UHGV virus genome: UHGV-0119078
Origin: a virus
Length of the DNA: 10,730 bases
Direction: 5' to 3' (one strand)
The notes beneath the pieces are model-generated. The model was given only the letters and a program-made list of their open reading frames with translations. It was not told the origin of the DNA and did no database searches. A program made the position numbers and the translations under genes. Shown in pieces: positions 43 through 10,688 of this stretch; the stretch's first letter is position 1, and every line of letters starts with the position of its first letter.

Positions 43-55
43 CAATGACCCTTGA
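43..55. repeat. Left copy of 13-bp perfect direct repeat CAATGACCCTTGA (candidate attL core)
   Basis: Identical 13-mer at 43..55 and 10676..10688; flanks differ immediately outside the repeat; right copy lies about 90 bp from the start of the large serine recombinase gene. Confidence 0.45.
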
Positions 56-2684: not shown

Positions 2685-2861
2685 TTAGGACGGGTCTTTG
2701 TGGTCATTATCCTTAAGGTCAAGCGTCCATGTACGACCGAACAGTTTAAAGACAACAAGCACTCTGACGAGGACGTAGCGGAGTAACAGACCTGCAATCA
2801 GCCCGATACCTCCACCAGCCCATACATCAGGTGACCCCAGTTCAGGAGGGAGATTTACCAT
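2685..2861 (-). CDS. Candidate small membrane protein (58 aa from internal ATG with AGGAAA SD-like sequence; 70 aa if started at 2897)
   Basis: ORF encodes one strongly hydrophobic segment (WAGGGIGLIAGLLLRYVLVRVLVVFKLF) followed by a charged tail; locally GC-richer than surroundings. No recognisable family; could be spurious. Confidence 0.3.
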   Translation of the reverse strand: MVNLPPELGSPDVWAGGGIGLIAGLLLRYVLVRVLVVFKLFGRTWTLDLKDNDHKDPS

Positions 2862-2938: not shown

Positions 2939-3025
2939 CGAATAAACCTCATAGCCACGCCTTTATATTTTACTCTCCCCATAGAACCATTATACCACAG
3001 ATGTTAATAAAATGTTAAAAAATAC

Positions 3026-3054
3026 TTGACATTAGTCTTTGAAAATGCTAGTAT
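3026..3054 (+). promoter_or_regulatory. Sigma70/SigA-type promoter for the 3106..4417 operon
   Basis: Consensus -35 TTGACA (3026..3031), 17-bp spacer, extended -10 TGcTAGTAT (3046..3054), followed by ATTGTATATATA element shared with the 4553 promoter. Confidence 0.55.
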
Positions 3055-3105
3055 TGTATATATAAGTTAACAGAATAATAACATCTTATGAGGGTCGGAA
3101 CATGA

Positions 3106-3663
3106 ATGAGAGACGCAGAATTTAGAGCGATGCTTCAGGCATCGAGACAACGTAACAAGCACAACTCCTACGCTTACACAAACTCCCCCACCAGCCACGA
3201 ATTACCCAAGTTTACCAAGAAAGAACGCAAAGGCATTGACGAAGTAATTCGGGCAATTACACCGAGGAACCGTTACATGCCAACACGCAAAACAACAAAG
3301 AACAGCATCAAGAATTATCTGGCTAGCTTTGACAGCTACGCGCAACTACCGAGCAAGCTTGATGATATTTTTATTGGATTTTGCAGAAGCGAGGGTCACC
3401 AGAAATACAACCAGAAGGTTTTTTATTTACTGCGAAGTCTTGATGAAATTAACTCAGCCACCGTGACAAATCATCTTCAGCGTCAAGCAACCAGACTTAG
3501 CCATGAATTACCAAGCGATAAATATTGCGCTTTGCTTGCTGTAATGTGCGCAAAGTTAATTGGTGTTGTTGAGCATCATATTGCCGTTGGAAATATTGAG
3601 CCAATGGAAAACGAGCAACCAGATTTCGAGTTTGACCCGTATTTAGTTACAGAGGAATTTTAA
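3106..3663 (+). CDS. Hypothetical protein (185 aa), basic N-terminus, acidic C-terminal tail
   Basis: Intact ORF directly downstream of the predicted promoter; GAGGG SD-like sequence upstream; stop codon directly abuts the next ATG (TAAATG). No family recognised. Confidence 0.65.
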   Translation: MRDAEFRAMLQASRQRNKHNSYAYTNSPTSHELPKFTKKERKGIDEVIRAITPRNRYMPTRKTTKNSIKNYLASFDSYAQLPSKLDDIFIGFCRSEGHQKYNQKVFYLLRSLDEINSATVTNHLQRQATRLSHELPSDKYCALLAVMCAKLIGVVEHHIAVGNIEPMENEQPDFEFDPYLVTEEF

Positions 3664-3942
3664 ATGAAGAAACACACTTTGACCCGTATTTCAGAGGAAG
3701 CTTTTAACGAGCTTACCAGAATTAAACGAGCTACTAACTTGCCTCATCAAACTGTAATGCAGCTTGCAATTGCTAAAGAGGTCACTGAGTCGGATTTACT
3801 TAAATATCCAGTCTCTAAAGGTCGTAAGCACATCCGAATTACTCAGGACGCTTTAGATACTTTGAAGGCACTTAACGGCTTTAAGATTGATATTGCCCGA
3901 CTATTGAGCATCAAAATTAACAAGCTATCTCAAGAGGTCTGA
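3664..3942 (+). CDS. Hypothetical small protein (92 aa)
   Basis: ORF tightly packed between the upstream and downstream genes (2-nt gap to next ATG), consistent with an operon. No family recognised. Confidence 0.6.
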   Translation: MKKHTLTRISEEAFNELTRIKRATNLPHQTVMQLAIAKEVTESDLLKYPVSKGRKHIRITQDALDTLKALNGFKIDIARLLSIKINKLSQEV

Positions 3943-3944
3943 CT

Positions 3945-4217
3945 ATGAAGCAATGGCGAGATGATATTAAACGGTTCTTTGCAACTTACTTCATGATTAA
4001 TTACGAAACAGGAATGCTTGAATGGATTGATGGTGGAGAGGTTAAGACAAGAGATGACGCTTACGGTAATCCAATGATTCGTTATGGCACTCGTGATTAT
4101 TATGTGAAATATGTCATCTGGTTTTTGCATCATGAAGTTCAGGCAACTAAAAAAATTATCTTCAGGGATGGTAATAAAAGAAATTGCCACCCAAACAATT
4201 TACTACTGGAGATTTAA
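3945..4217 (+). CDS. HNH-like small protein (HNH_3-type fold), probably degenerate at the catalytic histidine
   Basis: 90-aa ORF with NYETGMLEW (matches the Y-x-ETG-x-x-x-W N-terminal signature of phage HNH_3 proteins) and a C-terminal IIFRDGNKRNCHPNNLLL block aligning with the IDHxDGN...N..NL HNH core, but with Phe/Arg where the catalytic His is expected. Confidence 0.5.
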   Translation: MKQWRDDIKRFFATYFMINYETGMLEWIDGGEVKTRDDAYGNPMIRYGTRDYYVKYVIWFLHHEVQATKKIIFRDGNKRNCHPNNLLLEI

Positions 4218-4417
4218 TGCTATGTATTAAATTCGAATATTTGACAGATAAAATGATTAAGCATGTATCAGACCTGCTCATCAAAGAAGGTGGTTTCGGT
4301 GATGCTTGCAATCCAAAAGATATCTTCATTCATGCCACCAGCCCAAACGCAACACTAAAGACAGCAGTTACAGCGGAATGGTTTGAACGAAATAAAGCGG
4401 AATTAGGTTATTGGTAG
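4217..4417 (+). CDS. Hypothetical small protein (66 aa), translationally coupled to the HNH-like gene
   Basis: ATG at 4217 overlaps the upstream TAA stop (TAATG); GGAG 5 nt upstream. The longer ORF-track start at 4184 lacks an RBS. No family recognised. Confidence 0.45.
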   Translation: MLCIKFEYLTDKMIKHVSDLLIKEGGFGDACNPKDIFIHATSPNATLKTAVTAEWFERNKAELGYW

Positions 4418-4513
4418 TCCGAGACTTTAAGAGAAATTAGAAAAACAGCTTCTCAGACGCTCTCAATCGCATTCTAACGCAAAAAACTACCTTATTTTAG
4501 GGTGGGTAACACA
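4417..4513. repeat. Right arm of about 97-bp imperfect inverted repeat (pairs with 1545..1641)
   Basis: See left arm; this arm starts at the stop codon of the 4217..4417 ORF and ends about 40 bp before the 4553 promoter. Confidence 0.7.
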
Positions 4514-4552
4514 GTAAATAAGAATTGATGTTACCAATCTGTTAAAAAGCTG

Positions 4553-4581
4553 TTGACAAATAACCTTAAGCATGACATAAT
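4553..4581 (+). promoter_or_regulatory. Sigma70/SigA-type promoter for the 4923..9034 gene set
   Basis: Consensus -35 TTGACA (4553..4558), 17-bp spacer, extended -10 TGaCATAAT (4573..4581), followed by ATTGTATATATA (4580..4591), identical to the element at 3053..3064. Confidence 0.5.
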
Positions 4582-4848
4582 TGTATATATAGGGAGAGCA
4601 ATTCTCCTTGAATTAAACTATTAATCGTTCTACATCAATGATAGTTGTTTTGAGTTGGAAAGGTGCAATGCTTTTCGTCATGGCCTATTTAGCCCACACT
4701 AGATAGGCTATCTCAAAAAGTACTCTTGTTCATTCGTTTGAATCCCTTAGATGTTTTAATTTCTTCACCTTATGAATGGCCCTTTATAAGAAATTATCTA
4801 GGGCTATTCAGTTTTTAAAAAGCATACTTGGCAAACCGCCTTTTAAGT

Positions 4849-4913
4849 CTCTTCTAAGTTTGTAGGCTGTCAGGTGTGCTTTTTAAAAACTGAAATACTT
4901 TAGCTTAGAAGAG
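4849..4913 (+). promoter_or_regulatory. 5-prime-UTR hairpin predicted to sequester the ribosome-binding site of the 4923 gene
   Basis: Perfect 10-bp inverted repeat CTCTTCTAAG (4849..4858) / CTTAGAAGAG (4904..4913) with a 45-nt loop; the 3-prime arm overlaps the SD (GAAGAGG) 10 nt upstream of the ATG; the UTR from the predicted promoter is about 330 nt. Confidence 0.35.
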
Positions 4914-5980: not shown

Positions 5981-8107
5981 ATGAGCAAATTCACAGTTGA
6001 TAGTTTTATCGTTGAGTTAGGCTTCAGCGAGAACGTTATTAAGGGCTTGCAAAGAGTTGAAAAAGCAGCTTTGCAGTCAGCACAAAGAATTGAAAAGAAC
6101 CTAAATAAAGGCTTCAAGATTAATACAAAGCAACTTGACAGTAATCTGACAAGTTCTTTGAAGTCAATGGAAGGGAAAATTAATAAGACCTTTGACCGTC
6201 TGGAAGCTAGAGCAAGAAATACTAGAGTTTTCCGTTTCACAAGTCAGGTTAATGACGTTATTAATCCGCCAAAACAACCGAGGCCAAGAAGAGTTACTAG
6301 TGACCGAGCTATTACAGCGGCTTATTCAGCGAATATGACTAAGCTGAAAGGTCTTAACCCAATTGTCGAGAAATACATTAAGAGTCAGTTTTACGCATTA
6401 AGTAGTAAAGCTGGTCAGATGGATAACACCAAGTTTAATGAAGCCCTTGCTAAACTAAATTCAAGTGTACGAGAAGCAATTGCTAAAGCCAGAGGTCATA
6501 CATCCACCAGCATTAACGGTGACAGAGCAGCTAATAGTCTTGATAGTTTGAGTTCAGCAGCAGTTAAAACAGCAGGTGCATTTATCAGCTTTCAGGCTGT
6601 ACTATCCGCTTATCAGAAGATTATGGAAGTTGGCCTTCAACGTGCATCATCGGAAAGAAGTATTGATTTCGTATTCGGTGACCAAAGTACACAGGTCAAA
6701 AAGTTCATTCAAGATTTAACTCAAATTACTGGTATGGACACAACCGAAACACAAGCACAGTTTGCTTCATTTGGTGCATCTGCAAAAAATACGATGGGTC
6801 TTGAAGGCTCAGAGGAATTATTTAAAAACTTAACTGGATATGCCCGTTTAATGGGTCGTTCAGATGAGCAGATTCAAAGAGCATTAACCGCAGTATCGCA
6901 GATGGCTTCTAAGGGTCAGGTGATGGCTGAAGAGCTTAAGGGGCAACTATCTGAAGCTTTACCGGGTGCTACTCAGGCATTTGCAAAGGCTTTAGGTCTG
7001 ACTGAAAAACAGCTTTTCGATAAGATGAAAAATGGTGATGTTAAAGCCTCTGATGCACTCCCTAAGTTTGCTAAAGAACTTGGTTCACAGATTAATTCCA
7101 GAGGTGGCTGGAAAGCTATTCAGGACTCTACGCAGACGATGTTAGGGAACTTAAAGAATACTTGGAACAACTCACTAACGGATATCTTCAGAGGTTCTGA
7201 AAATGGTCTTCAAGATTTCACAAGAAGCTTAACCAATCTTTTAAATAGTCTTGGTGGGAGTGGTAAAACATTAGGTGAAAGTCTTGGTAATCTCATGACT
7301 TCTATGTCACACGGTGTCGATAACCTGACTGATATTAGTTACAGGGTAAGGGCGTTCTTTGACGAGGTGACATTGGCTTATCGTTCACTAAATGACACTC
7401 AGAAAAAAATTGTTGATGGCCTATCTGATGGGTTAATTGATGGTTTGAAGATGCTTGCTGTAGCTGTTACTGCTCAAAAGGCTGCAAATGTAGCTGGAGG
7501 CTTGTTAAACCTTGCAAATGCTGTTACTTCATTCGGTGACGCTGTTAATAAAGCTAAAGCTGGCAAGGCTGGTTCTTCAGGTGGTGCGCTAAATAAAGTT
7601 GGTAGAGTTGTTCTTTATGCTGAGTTGGTGAACTTTGCTCTTGATAATTTAAACCCTGAAGCGGCTAAGAATCCGAACTTACACCAATCAGGTATTGGAA
7701 CAGAGACAAACTTCAACCCTGAATACAAAGGCGATTCATCTAAACCAAACCAAATTAATGATGGATGGGCTAAGATTGGTGGTTCTATCGCTGACTGGTT
7801 TAATGGTGCAGCTAATAAAATTGCTAACTTCCAAGAACCGATGAATAACTTCGTAAATAACACACAATCAACTCCACCAGCTATCGACACGGTTAATAGC
7901 AATGCTCAATTAGCTATGGCTGTATCAGAGTTAGGAAGAAAGGTAGACGCTTTAACAGCAGAAACTAAGAAGCCCTTGTCACTTAATATCAAAGGTGAAG
8001 CAATTGTTAGGCCGGATGAACCATCTTTCTTTATTTTCAATCAATCGGCTAATGACCAGTTCACGCAGGATATGCTCTTAAGTTCAAGCTATCCAGAAGA
8101 AGAATGA
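5981..8107 (+). CDS. Tape-measure-protein-like protein (708 aa)
   Basis: Central block GQVMAEELKGQLSEALPGATQAFAKALGLTEKQLFDKMKNGDVKASDALPKFAKELG resembles the conserved core of phage tail tape measure proteins (recalled from memory, not searched); alpha-helical, Ala/Gly/Ser/Asn-rich, low-complexity C-terminal part; AAGAGGTGA SD. Coding confidence is high; the functional call is moderate. Confidence 0.55.
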   Translation: MSKFTVDSFIVELGFSENVIKGLQRVEKAALQSAQRIEKNLNKGFKINTKQLDSNLTSSLKSMEGKINKTFDRLEARARNTRVFRFTSQVNDVINPPKQPRPRRVTSDRAITAAYSANMTKLKGLNPIVEKYIKSQFYALSSKAGQMDNTKFNEALAKLNSSVREAIAKARGHTSTSINGDRAANSLDSLSSAAVKTAGAFISFQAVLSAYQKIMEVGLQRASSERSIDFVFGDQSTQVKKFIQDLTQITGMDTTETQAQFASFGASAKNTMGLEGSEELFKNLTGYARLMGRSDEQIQRALTAVSQMASKGQVMAEELKGQLSEALPGATQAFAKALGLTEKQLFDKMKNGDVKASDALPKFAKELGSQINSRGGWKAIQDSTQTMLGNLKNTWNNSLTDIFRGSENGLQDFTRSLTNLLNSLGGSGKTLGESLGNLMTSMSHGVDNLTDISYRVRAFFDEVTLAYRSLNDTQKKIVDGLSDGLIDGLKMLAVAVTAQKAANVAGGLLNLANAVTSFGDAVNKAKAGKAGSSGGALNKVGRVVLYAELVNFALDNLNPEAAKNPNLHQSGIGTETNFNPEYKGDSSKPNQINDGWAKIGGSIADWFNGAANKIANFQEPMNNFVNNTQSTPPAIDTVNSNAQLAMAVSELGRKVDALTAETKKPLSLNIKGEAIVRPDEPSFFIFNQSANDQFTQDMLLSSSYPEEE

Positions 8108-8263
8108 TTTAACGGTGTTCTACGTGAATAAAGCAAAGTTAATACCCGCACTGAAAAATAATTTTTACGTAGCTCACGCTTAACAGAGAAAATACTTATA
8201 TATCAAAGGCTTGGTTAAAAATGATTAAAATACACTAAGCCTTTGAAATCAAAGGAGAATTTA

Positions 8264-9034
8264 ATGATTTTTAGCAATCAAATCCGCTACAGTGGCAAAG
8301 ATGGCGTTTACTTCCACTTAAGAGATAATGTAGATGCCTTCTTAACCTTATCAGCAACTGAACAGATGGAATATGACAGCCCTATGATGGTGACAACTCA
8401 GGCTATGCAATCGGGGCAAACTATAACTGATAATGTTCAGAGAGCACCTAAGACCATCTCTATTAGCGGTGTTGTAGTGGTTGATTCGACGGGTTCAGTT
8501 CTATTAACCAGACAGGGGCAACTTGTAGAAACCTTTATTTCTACGGTTGAACAATGGCGAGACCAGAAGCAAATCATCACTATTGTTTGTAAAGATGGAA
8601 TATCTATCACTGATAGTATCATTACTCAGTTTAAAGCGAGTAAAGAGCATACCATTGCTAATGGTCTTCGTATTCAGATGACCTTCCAAGGTGTAGAATT
8701 TCGTTCAATCGTAGGTCAAACTGATATTTCAGCAGCAACTGGAAAGACCGCTACCACGAATGATGGCGGTTCTACCAGTAAAAAGAACACTGGCAACACT
8801 ACAACGAGTCTTGGAAGCCCTATGCTGACCTGTAAAGAGCTTTTTAGCTATTCGGCAAGTGAGTTATCAGATGAAGCGCTAAAAGCCCGTGTAACGTGCT
8901 CTAAGAGCGTTAGCGTTAAAAATGGTGAGAGCACCTTCACAGCCTCAGCTAATGAGCAAGCTTCAAAGGTGCTTAAGTCGGGTAATGCTTTACGGAAGTT
9001 TTCTGTAAATCCGAACAAGAAGGGCACTTATTGA
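8264..9034 (+). CDS. Hypothetical protein (257 aa from ATG 8264), possibly tail-associated given its position after the tape-measure-like gene
   Basis: AAAGGAG SD 6 nt upstream of ATG 8264 (the ORF-track TTG start at 8243 has no RBS); Ser/Thr/Gly-rich central linker. No family recognised. Confidence 0.55.
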
Positions 9035-9066: not shown

Positions 9067-10587
9067 TTACAGTTGATAAGCGTCTATTTCTAGTAGCTCT
9101 TTTTCAGCAATTTCAAATATTGATGTTCCATCATTTAGCGGTAACGGGTTTGTAGGTATGGTGATTTCAGTGTCGTTCTGTAGCGTTACAATTACCGAAT
9201 CCTTACCCAATGTAAGCCCTTTTAGATGTTTGGACAAAATCAACTGACACTCGACACGACCCGCTTTAGTTGTCAGGTCAATATCTTTAAGCTGGGGTAG
9301 TTCCTTATCAGTGAGTGAAGCCTTACGCCTCATGTTATCAATCGTGGTCTGTAGCTCTGTACGCCTCTGGTTCAGTTCCTTAATCTGAATTTTTAGTTCA
9401 TCAATATCATCCATCTCAAGAAGTAGGGCGGTAGCTTTCTTGATTCTGGTTGTGACAATTTCAACCTCATGCTGTAGAGATGCAATCTTCCCCTCTGCTT
9501 CTCCATCATTCCCCACGTCAATCATTCCTAGAAAATTTTCAAGCATCCACTTATCAAACGGTTTACGCTTCAACGGAGGAACATCACAGCGACCATCAAG
9601 ATGGTTATTGCACCGATAAACGCCCTGATACTTATTCTTAGTCCCTGTAGGGTGAACACTAGCCCCGCACTGACACCTAAACAGACCTTTGAAGATGTTA
9701 ATCGTTAATGGATTATCACTTGCAGGTGTACGGCCTATACGGTTCTTACCAAGAATCTCTTGAGCTTTATTGAACGTTGAAGCATCTATAGCGGCTTCGT
9801 AGTAGTTCGGTATAGCGGGGCGGTCATTACGTTGTGATGCTGGTAACGTGCCTATCGTTGTCTCTGACCTTAAGATGGTGCGTACAGAGTGAACACTAAA
9901 CCCGTTAGCATCTTTACGGCGACTAAACGACTTTATACCGTTGCTTTGAAGGTGACGGGCGATGTTATGCAGACTTTCACCACTTAGCAGCAGCTTGAAA
10001 ATCAGTCTTACAGTCTCAGCGTGTTCATTGAGTTTAAAAGTATCGGGGTCAATCCATCCGGGAACCATCTTTGTTAAACGTTGTTCACCAGCAAGGGCAA
10101 GTTTTGCACGTTGCTCCCATTTCTGAGAAACACGGAAAGACTTCTGCTTAGATTCCTGATGCGCTATGTAGGCTTTGACACGCTGGATGATTGAGATTCC
10201 TAAATCATCGGCTAAAGCATCCTTTGTGTAGATAAGACCATCTTGTAGCGTGTGAATCTCTAACCCGTTGCCTAAGATGCGATTCATCAAGGCTTCTGTT
10301 TCAAGGTGTTCTAAGCGGCCTATACGGTCGATACTCTCAACAAGCAAAATCGTACCTTCTGGAAACTCCCCAGACTCAATACGGGCTAACATGTCACCAA
10401 ACTGACCAGTAAGATGCTTACCTTTGTAACCGGATAGACCTTCATCACTGAAAGACGCTACTACTTGAGCATCGCTATTCTTCTTCAGCCACTGCTTGAA
10501 CAGGTCGTTTTGTCGTCTGGTTGAATCTGCACCTTCAGCGCCTTGTATGGCTGATGAGAATCTCAAGTATGTTATTACGGTTCTCAC
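9067..10587 (-). CDS. Large serine recombinase (phage-type serine integrase)
   Basis: 506-aa ORF; N-terminal resolvase-type catalytic domain (YLRFSSAIQ, LLVESIDRIGR), extended recombinase domain, Cys-rich zinc-ribbon-like motif (CQCGASVHP ... YRCNNHLDGRCD) and C-terminal coiled coil (KIQIKELNQRRTELQTTIDNMRRK); start codon appears to be GTG (plus-strand CAC at 10585..10587) with GGAG upstream. Confidence 0.85.
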   Translation of the reverse strand: MRTVITYLRFSSAIQGAEGADSTRRQNDLFKQWLKKNSDAQVVASFSDEGLSGYKGKHLTGQFGDMLARIESGEFPEGTILLVESIDRIGRLEHLETEALMNRILGNGLEIHTLQDGLIYTKDALADDLGISIIQRVKAYIAHQESKQKSFRVSQKWEQRAKLALAGEQRLTKMVPGWIDPDTFKLNEHAETVRLIFKLLLSGESLHNIARHLQSNGIKSFSRRKDANGFSVHSVRTILRSETTIGTLPASQRNDRPAIPNYYEAAIDASTFNKAQEILGKNRIGRTPASDNPLTINIFKGLFRCQCGASVHPTGTKNKYQGVYRCNNHLDGRCDVPPLKRKPFDKWMLENFLGMIDVGNDGEAEGKIASLQHEVEIVTTRIKKATALLLEMDDIDELKIQIKELNQRRTELQTTIDNMRRKASLTDKELPQLKDIDLTTKAGRVECQLILSKHLKGLTLGKDSVIVTLQNDTEITIPTNPLPLNDGTSIFEIAEKELLEIDAYQL

Positions 10588-10675: not shown

Positions 10676-10688
10676 CAATGACCCTTGA
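10676..10688. repeat. Right copy of 13-bp perfect direct repeat CAATGACCCTTGA (candidate attR core)
   Basis: Identical to 43..55; lies about 90 bp outside the integrase start. Confidence 0.45.

Follow-up and report, generated by a model that had tools for sequence, protein, structure and literature searches.

What role does a tightly coupled operon of four small genes play in the island that carries it? The operon in question (genes g1 to g4) lies in a stretch of 10,730 nucleotides (nt) of UHGV virus genome UHGV-0119078, hereafter the window, which corresponds to an integrative island of ~10.6 kb with its insertion point between yciI and tonB. A reading made from the letters of the DNA (the sequence-only reading) had taken the four genes for one coordinated set expressed at fixed stoichiometry, had found that only the third resembles anything known, and had proposed a defence, anti-defence or helper-interference module.

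Here we show that g1 and g2 are the core of a family of related islands and that g3 and g4 are interchangeable cargo in a slot behind them. The data are consistent, at a confidence we would call evenly poised, with g1-g4 being the early control operon of a satellite-like island in which g2 acts as the regulator. From its gene content we infer a satellite lifestyle for the island, with virulent Felix O1-type phages as its helpers, similar to that of the PLE satellites of Vibrio cholerae. A full-text literature search found no published description of the island family or of its protein accessions.

Four coupled genes follow a nearly invariant promoter

The operon occupies the plus strand and comprises g1 (185 amino acids (aa); 3106-3663), g2 (92 aa; 3664-3942), g3 (90 aa; 3945-4217) and g4 (66 aa; 4217-4417), the last counted from an ATG inside a listed 77-aa open reading frame (ORF) that begins with TTG. 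The ORFs and junctions described earlier were thus recovered at 3106-4417: g1 and g2 abut directly (TAAATG, 0 nt), g2 and g3 are separated by 2 nt (TGActATG), and g3 and g4 overlap by 1 nt (TAATG). Each of the four starts is preceded at 6-11 nt by a Shine-Dalgarno-like GAGG or GGAG, RefSeq annotates all four ORFs as coding sequences, and ratios of non-synonymous to synonymous polymorphism (pN/pS) of 0.11-0.33 across g1-g4 indicate purifying selection on all of them. Both the junctions and the island context support the view of a translationally coupled unit on a mobile element.

The near-consensus promoter that had been noted ahead of the operon is equally well founded. This promoter, P1 (TTGACA-17-TAGTAT, plus strand, 3026-3054), is of the sigma-70 type, has 10/12 consensus matches and an extended -10 TG, and is nearly invariant in six islands whose coding regions diverge by 20-45%. 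Islands that share no more than 50-80% identity in g1 and g2 still have P1 sequences that are 96-100% identical; in the pair formed by the window and strain D10, for instance, g1 is ~80% identical and the middle of g2 50-60%. Promoter-like sites are not enriched window-wide (13 observed versus 26 expected), and no terminator-like site is predicted from P1 to the next promoter at 4553. Judged by these features, g1-g4 are predicted to be one transcription unit, the first rightward operon of the island.

g1 and g2 are constant, g3 and g4 are exchanged

The comparison covered six islands in full and a further four across the operon only. The six full-length islands share a constant layout, which starts with a ~1.3-kb ORF-poor region, a leftward promoter with a small gene, and P1-g1-g2-slot-g5, and continues with a second promoter (P2), a 236-aa gene, a ~67-aa gene, a tape-measure protein (TMP) gene, a baseplate gene and a recombinase gene. 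Both g1 and g2 are present in all six. The slot after g2 holds g3 and g4 in the window and in D10; g4 alone in strain C3, where the g2 stop overlaps the g4 start; g4 and then a second mini-HNH allele in strain 18-4; g3 and then an unrelated 128-aa helix-turn-helix (HTH) protein in ET82 and isolate 12; and the 128-aa HTH protein alone in 503829. Because the slot contents vary in this way, the four genes are not a fixed set.

This variability bears directly on the possibility that the g1-g4 proteins work jointly, in fixed proportions, as one undescribed system of defence, anti-defence or interference with a helper. Such a system would fit the tight translational coupling of the four genes, the lack of known function for g1 and g4, the satellite-like nature of the element (its Vibrio relatives carry small interference proteins, such as the 80-aa Rta) and the high allelic diversity of g1, which is compatible with an arms race. 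However, the genes do not co-vary: g3 occurs in a minority of islands and is found before g4, after g4 (as another allele) or without g4; g4 can be replaced by the unrelated HTH protein; and g1 and g2 are universal in the family, behind a conserved control region. None of the four proteins matches a PADLOC-DB v2 model at E <= 0.1. We regard a four-protein system as improbable, and with neither a defence-model match nor a fixed gene set the label of accessory module has no proof for g3 and g4 and is unlikely to apply to g1 and g2, which have the look of a core control module of the element.

Some part of the block 2990-4600 was matched in 485 of 5,426 complete E. coli genomes (~9%), and at least 80% of it in 275 of them (~5%). 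Outside E. coli, members of the g1 and g2 families were found in Shigella, Salmonella, Citrobacter and E. albertii, the last being the only species returned by a scan of species-representative genomes. Felixounavirus matches come from largely the same hosts as the island family (Escherichia, Shigella, Salmonella and Citrobacter). Related islands reside at three or more chromosomal sites and have different recombinase alleles.

g2 is a predicted DNA-binding protein with candidate targets at P1 and P2

The statement that only the third gene resembles anything known had to be revised when the predicted structure of g2 was considered. Its AlphaFold2 model (pLDDT 91.6) has a strand at residues 4-10 followed by helices at 11-24 and 28-36, and then a strand at 54-60 followed by helices at 61-69 and 77-91; these two consecutive beta-alpha-alpha units in one chain make up a single-chain tandem ribbon-helix-helix (RHH) arrangement, and the model superposes structurally on solved tandem RHH members, with TraY and VirC2 as the best structural matches. 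On the strength of this model we predict with high confidence that g2 is a TraY/DndE-like tandem RHH DNA-binding protein. By sequence, g2 stays under the cut-off for Pfam DndE (E=0.066; 14 bits versus 25) and for NCBIfam TIGR03184 (E=0.0028; 18 bits versus 71.85), and a profile search of the PDB gave no match. Sequence identity to TraY of the F relaxosome, DndE, VirC2 and AvtR is 5-14%. Unlike TraY and DndE, g2 has no relaxase and no dnd genes nearby, and unlike all four proteins its family is restricted to islands of Escherichia, Shigella, Salmonella and Citrobacter.

RHH proteins read DNA with their beta-strands. Both beta-strands of g2 are invariant in 27 alleles, and the helices and the linker vary. 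Candidate targets are found at the two rightward promoters. P2 (TTGACA-17-CATAAT, plus strand, 4528-4591, 11/12 consensus match) is paralogous to P1 and heads the operon of the 236-aa, 67-aa, TMP and baseplate genes. The two promoters share, with identical spacings, the layout ATGTTA-N6-TGTTAAAAA-N4-TTGACA-N17-(-10)-TGTATATATA, which at P1 spans 3001-3064 on the plus strand (ATGTTA from 3001, TGTTAAAAA from 3013, TTGACA from 3026, TAGTAT at 3049-3054 and TGTATATATA at 3055-3064). On the plus strand, TGTTAAAAA and TGTATATATA are restricted within the window to P1 and P2. A divergent leftward promoter (TTAACA-18-TATAAT, minus strand, 3018 to 2989) overlaps this array, its -35 being the reverse complement of the TGTTAA motif of P1. 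Because the putative DNA-reading strands are invariant and P1 and P2 have invariant motifs in common, we infer that g2 regulates P1, P2 and possibly the leftward promoter.

Mimicry of helper promoters was considered and rejected, the motifs being missing in Felix O1 and the matches of an IMG/VR pattern scan being scattered: there were 55, almost all single, and the sole contig with two matches is an island of the same family. Since the motifs occur neither in Felix O1 nor in other phages in this way, they belong to the island itself.

g1 and the ORF-poor region upstream

The product of g1 has a basic N-terminus, a helical core (residues 61-165) and an acidic C-terminal tail (...EQPDFEFDPYLVTEEF) that ends in Phe and is invariant among close alleles. 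Searches of Pfam, PHROGs, NCBIfam, PADLOC and PDB sequences gave no family, structure or defence-model match; an exhaustive profile search yielded 22 representatives, mostly fragments, and distant relatives are found in PHROG 23123, whose function is unknown. A short, weak similarity to the Ltp superinfection-exclusion lipoprotein (4eqq, E=0.006) was discarded for want of Pfam support. We conclude that g1 is a new protein family without known relatives. It forms 1085 clusters at 90% identity, essentially within one group of enterobacterial genera, compared with 10 clusters for g3. The island genes are in general deeply diverged between copies (synonymous divergence, pS, 0.4-0.7), and a hypervariable patch in g1 was rejected, the variation being spread along the whole protein.

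Upstream of P1, ~1.3 kb (~1650-2680) is free of long ORFs and is 78-89% conserved between islands. Conservation at the nt level extends to the five other full-length islands, although in C3 it covers less of the region. The region contains a perfect 54-nt direct repeat (2436-2489 and 2531-2584, period 95) with two short palindromes per copy, and is a candidate origin, long non-coding RNA or protein-binding array.

From these features, g1 might either assist g2, as its partner or as a sensor, or initiate replication. The second role would make the operon a replication module, with g1 as the initiator that recruits replisome proteins of the helper or the host through its acidic tail, g2 serving as a TraY-like DNA-bending factor and the origin lying in the upstream repeat region. 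Several observations agree with it: no other replication gene was found in the island, the conserved region with its 54-nt repeats lies just upstream, close g1 alleles all have the same tail, the gene after a distant g1 homologue encodes a winged-helix protein with weak likeness to DnaD, and the proteins that g2 matches best in structure are accessory factors of DNA processing. By contrast, g1 has no initiator, primase or helicase match by sequence or by fold, the DnaD-like match is weak (E=1.4e-3), and the likeness of the acidic tail to replisome-recruiting tails is a presumed one. A replication module is, on our assessment, doubtful.

g3 is a mobile descendant of homing endonucleases that lacks the catalytic residues

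That g3 is HNH_3-like and has lost its expected catalytic His were both correct observations. The protein matches Pfam HNH_3 (PF13392) at E=4.4e-5 with 23.5 bits, just under the gathering score of 24.8, and PHROG HNH families at E=5e-5, and the paralogous mini-HNH allele of 18-4 passes the HNH_3 threshold with 34.3 bits. Residues 2-86 align with the N-terminal region of HNH_3-AP2 homing endonucleases (Felix O1 ORF95, ORF106 and ORF128, together with an island-borne full-length HNH_3-AP2 protein), including the ...GN..N....NL motif; similarity to the Felixounavirus genes themselves is not significant (E of at least 0.02). At the canonical Asp-His position (the 'DH' of ..IDHIDGN..) g3 has Ile72-Phe73, so that the neighbouring Asp is replaced along with the His. 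Phe is present in every intact window-type allele aligned, and the 18-4 allele has Ile-His. No relocated catalytic His was found, H62/H63 and H82 falling in non-catalytic alignment columns. The protein ends six residues past Asn84-Asn85-Leu86, before the distal metal-binding Asn, at a point where the phage enzymes go on (...NLRETDKYGNAQN...), and Pfam detects no AP2 or any other second domain in its 90 aa; an AP2 domain is present in Felix O1 ORF95 and in the island-borne protein L005:7016-7540. With Asp-His and the distal Asn lost and AP2 missing, g3, as judged from its alignments, cannot be a conventional HNH nuclease.

The gene also behaves as a cassette. It is inserted precisely at the g2/g4 junction, which is empty in C3, and its last codons copy the end of g2, with the result that the TAATG coupling to g4 is re-created. 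Wherever present, g3 has at least 96.8% nt identity, compared with 71-100% for the adjacent g4, and the tract 3940-4500 of the window has 99-100% identity to D10, with g1 and g2 alongside at 50-80%. Presence or absence at a precise intergenic site within a near-identical flanking tract is a trait of homing-endonuclease genes, and g3 has it; by these comparisons g3 is a putative cassette that moves between islands. In being optional, in its precise junction insertion and in its near-identical tract it resembles the free-standing HNH_3-AP2 endonucleases of Felixounavirus, from which it differs by its Ile-Phe, the lack of the distal Asn and of AP2, and its sub-threshold Pfam score.

Has g3 kept a function? 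In seven alleles, the polymorphic codons comprise 6 synonymous and 3 non-synonymous changes (pN/pS 0.11), non-synonymous sites being ~4 times as many as synonymous ones, and this purifying selection favours a retained non-catalytic role. To that extent the suggestion of a regulatory or DNA-binding rather than a nuclease function is borne out. The competing explanation is a decaying homing-endonuclease pseudogene whose frame is kept solely for coupling the translation of g4, and it draws on the loss of all catalytic residues and of the DNA-binding domain, on the copied g2 end that restores the coupling, and on frameshifted and fused variants on record. It is at odds with the excess of synonymous changes just described, and with the finding of g3 ahead of the unrelated 128-aa gene. 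A paralogue with 40% identity, which retains the His but not the Asp, shows the ~90-aa architecture of g3 too. In other islands it occupies another position, with no gene behind it whose translation would have to be coupled, and its truncation at the same point argues that the short architecture is old. We therefore hold pure decay to be unlikely.

The full-length HNH_3-AP2 homing-endonuclease gene mentioned above (L005:7016-7540, minus strand, 174 aa) lies in the variable left cargo of its island, a position occupied in other islands by a Dam-type methyltransferase or by unknown genes.

g4, the 3' boundary and the inverted repeats

No match to g4 was found in Pfam, PHROGs, NCBIfam, PADLOC or PDB sequence searches; its pN/pS is 0.22. 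A query with g3-g4 detected homologous sequence in 297 genomes, mostly of g4 only at 60-80% nt identity, and in C3 the gene directly follows g2. The right copy of a ~93-nt inverted repeat (4416-4508; left copy 1550-1642; 71% identity, blastn 4e-8) begins directly after g4 and forms the 3' boundary of the unit. Just past it (~4500-4520) the window has lost g5 (~107 aa, no known family), which is present in most relatives, a deletion seen by comparison with L002:8068-8700.

The inverted repeat brackets the ORF-poor region and g1-g4 and is adjoined by a DNA-invertase-family recombinase gene (514-1089). The bracket reported by the sequence-only reading therefore exists, but it is weak (93 nt, 71% identity) and there is no evidence of inversion: a chimeric query across the inverted junction was covered to no more than 58% in any of 539 matching E. 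coli genomes, and a Hin/Gin-type invertible switch was rejected on the count of 0/539. Another island has a right copy that shares 93% identity with the left copy of the window. A structured RNA or terminator after g4 was likewise rejected, there being no Rfam family and no significant fold (z = -0.02).

Island ends, recombinases and gene content

The island is delimited by an 11-bp direct repeat, ATGACCCTTGA, the core of the attachment (att) site, whose left copy (44-54, plus strand) marks the island boundary and whose right copy (10678-10688, plus strand) consists of the start codon and first codons of tonB. Since the island sits inside the extreme 5' end of tonB, it cuts that gene off from its native upstream region. 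E. coli 2017.18.02CC is 100% identical to the window, except for an IS5 in 2017.18.02CC.

A large serine recombinase (9067-10587, minus strand) with Resolvase, Recombinase and Zn_ribbon_recom domains and a match to phrog_95 (2.7e-78) is the presumed integrase. Excision by a serine integrase requires a directionality factor, a type of protein that is small and diverse. The island encodes no recognisable one, a gap that g2 or g4 might fill. Against this, g4 is optional, PLEs obtain the factor from the helper, and the alleles of g2 do not follow those of the recombinase: the window and L004 have almost identical g2 proteins but recombinases that differ at a non-synonymous divergence (pN) of 0.52 and use different sites. 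We rejected g2 in this role for its uncoupling from the recombinase alleles, and consider it very unlikely overall that either protein is the directionality factor.

The operon downstream of P2 (4923-9034, plus strand) encodes the 236-aa and 67-aa proteins, the TMP (5981-8107, plus strand) and a Dit-like baseplate protein (8243-9034, plus strand, alternative start 8264). Pfam and PHROG matches (TMP_3, Dit_like, phrog_4036 and phrog_3721) cover the TMP/baseplate pair, and structural-protein matches in the island are limited to these two. Both genes are collinear with the Felixounavirus TMP gene and the gene next to it, with aa identities of 31% for the TMP and 68% for the baseplate protein, and the first ~45 residues of the TMP are nearly identical to those of its Felixounavirus counterpart. 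GC content is 40.0% in the island, 39.0% in Felix O1 and 45-49% in the flanking chromosome. No capsid, terminase or replication gene was detectable among the window proteins with Pfam and PHROG.

The 236-aa and 67-aa proteins were considered as tail chaperones and rejected, as they show no homology to Felix O1 ORF65/ORF66. Just before the 236-aa gene, in its long 5' leader, there is an inverted repeat with 27-nt arms (4807-4894; 89% complementary), the sole Rfam match of which is a spurious plant microRNA far under threshold.

The leftward promoter precedes a 58-aa ORF (2685-2861, minus strand, WP_165463743.1) that is kept in four other islands and encodes a single-pass membrane protein with one hydrophobic helix (MVNLPPELGSPDVWAGGGIGLIAGLLLRYVLVRVLVVFKLF...), which from its sequence could be a small membrane toxin, a holin-like protein or an exclusion protein. 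The small serine recombinase of the DNA-invertase family (minus strand) lies near the left end, and its module is flanked by a 25-nt direct repeat, TAGTTGGGCTTGT(T/A)CCAACCCCTAT, at 111-135 and 2914-2938, which contains a GTTGG..CCAAC palindrome and has partial copies at 1462-1479 and 2899-2916. The right copy is absent from that position in some related islands, and the repeats may be recombination sites of a nested cassette.

Insertion sequence (IS) elements (IS5, IS2, IS3, IS1, IS100 and ISEc12) are found in related islands, and four of the six full-length islands (L001, L005, L006 and L007) are interrupted by such elements in their tape-measure, baseplate or recombinase genes, which suggests frequent inactivation of islands.

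Discussion

A serine recombinase combined with its own Felixounavirus-related TMP and baseplate genes gives the island its likeness to the PLEs. PLEs integrate by a large serine recombinase, parasitise the virulent myophage ICP1 and encode their own TMP, chaperone and baseplate-hub proteins, which form chimeric tails on it (PMC12987554); putative tmp genes have been noted in other putative satellites as well (PMC12987554). The island here is similarly chromosomal, lacks capsid and terminase genes and has many small ORFs of unknown function, and its TMP and baseplate protein, like those of PLE11 (20% and 41%), show distant to moderate similarity to their counterparts in the helper, here a presumed one (31% and 68% identity). 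It has an integrase and end repeats, and helper-related genes without autonomous virion or replication genes. It differs in its Enterobacteriaceae hosts, its presumed Felixounavirus helper, its length of ~10.6 kb (PLEs measure ~18 kb) and the lack of a recognisable tail-assembly chaperone, and the likeness is one of architecture. Its paired divergent promoters, its polymorphic regulators and the small DNA-binding protein encoded in its first operon are features shared with the regulatory modules of SaPI and PICI satellites. SaPI and PICI satellites use tyrosine integrases, unlike the serine recombinase of the island, which moreover shows no homology to Stl, AlpA or Str and has a small membrane protein rather than a repressor as its leftward gene.

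In an early control operon, g2 would bind the elements common to P1 and P2, overlapping the divergent leftward promoter, and in doing so would autoregulate its operon and prevent expression of the tail genes before a helper infects. Its partner might be g1, translationally coupled to it and highly polymorphic, which could for example sense or recruit a helper protein. A precedent for g3 is CapR of PLE, a homing-endonuclease descendant that acts as a DNA-binding regulator of the helper (PMC8096241). As the nearest functional precedent by virtue of this descent, CapR suggests that g3 may be a non-catalytic DNA- or protein-binding factor, and g4 would be a small accessory effector. Tool results underlie the fold assigned to g2, the loss of activity in g3, the modular slot and the setting in an island; the satellite life cycle, regulation by g2 and any role of g1, g3 and g4 are our interpretation.

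Several points weigh against an early control operon with g2 as regulator. TraY and VirC2 are DNA-processing accessory factors rather than repressors, and DndE binds nicked DNA. What P1 and P2 have in common could reflect UP elements or start sites instead of operators; the motifs are absent from Felix O1 and are not enriched in any viral contig of the IMG/VR scan, so that there is no sequence link to helper regulation. The lack of an informative fold match for g1 makes its role a guess, and there are frameshifted or fused variants of g3. Finally, given the IS-broken islands and the loss of g5 here, some copies, possibly that of the window, may be inactive.

A broader proposal, which we put forward tentatively as one possibility, is that an undescribed family of PLE-like satellites, which exploits virulent Felix O1-type phages in Escherichia, Shigella, Salmonella and Citrobacter, builds chimeric tails with its own TMP and baseplate proteins, that a helper-sensing switch made of the fast-evolving helical protein g1 and the tandem RHH regulator g2 gates the tail promoter, the membrane protein and its own operon, and that the slot collects helper-directed effectors and domesticated endonuclease stumps. 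Slot products might act against the many HNH-AP2 homing endonucleases of the helper or against its tail assembly.

Phages of the Felix O1 type have a classical role in typing and find wide use in biocontrol and therapy against Salmonella and E. coli. A resident island that copies their TMP and baseplate genes would be a determinant of phage success missed by current satellite and defence finders. The operon offers testable parts, in g2 a candidate regulator of clear fold and in g1 a partner without known relatives, and g3 may be a second example of a satellite factor that arose from a homing endonuclease and is not catalytic. Satellite-encoded tail genes were experimentally shown only in 2026, for the PLE of Vibrio cholerae, and an enterobacterial counterpart in a tractable host would allow a test of whether chimeric-tail assembly is general.

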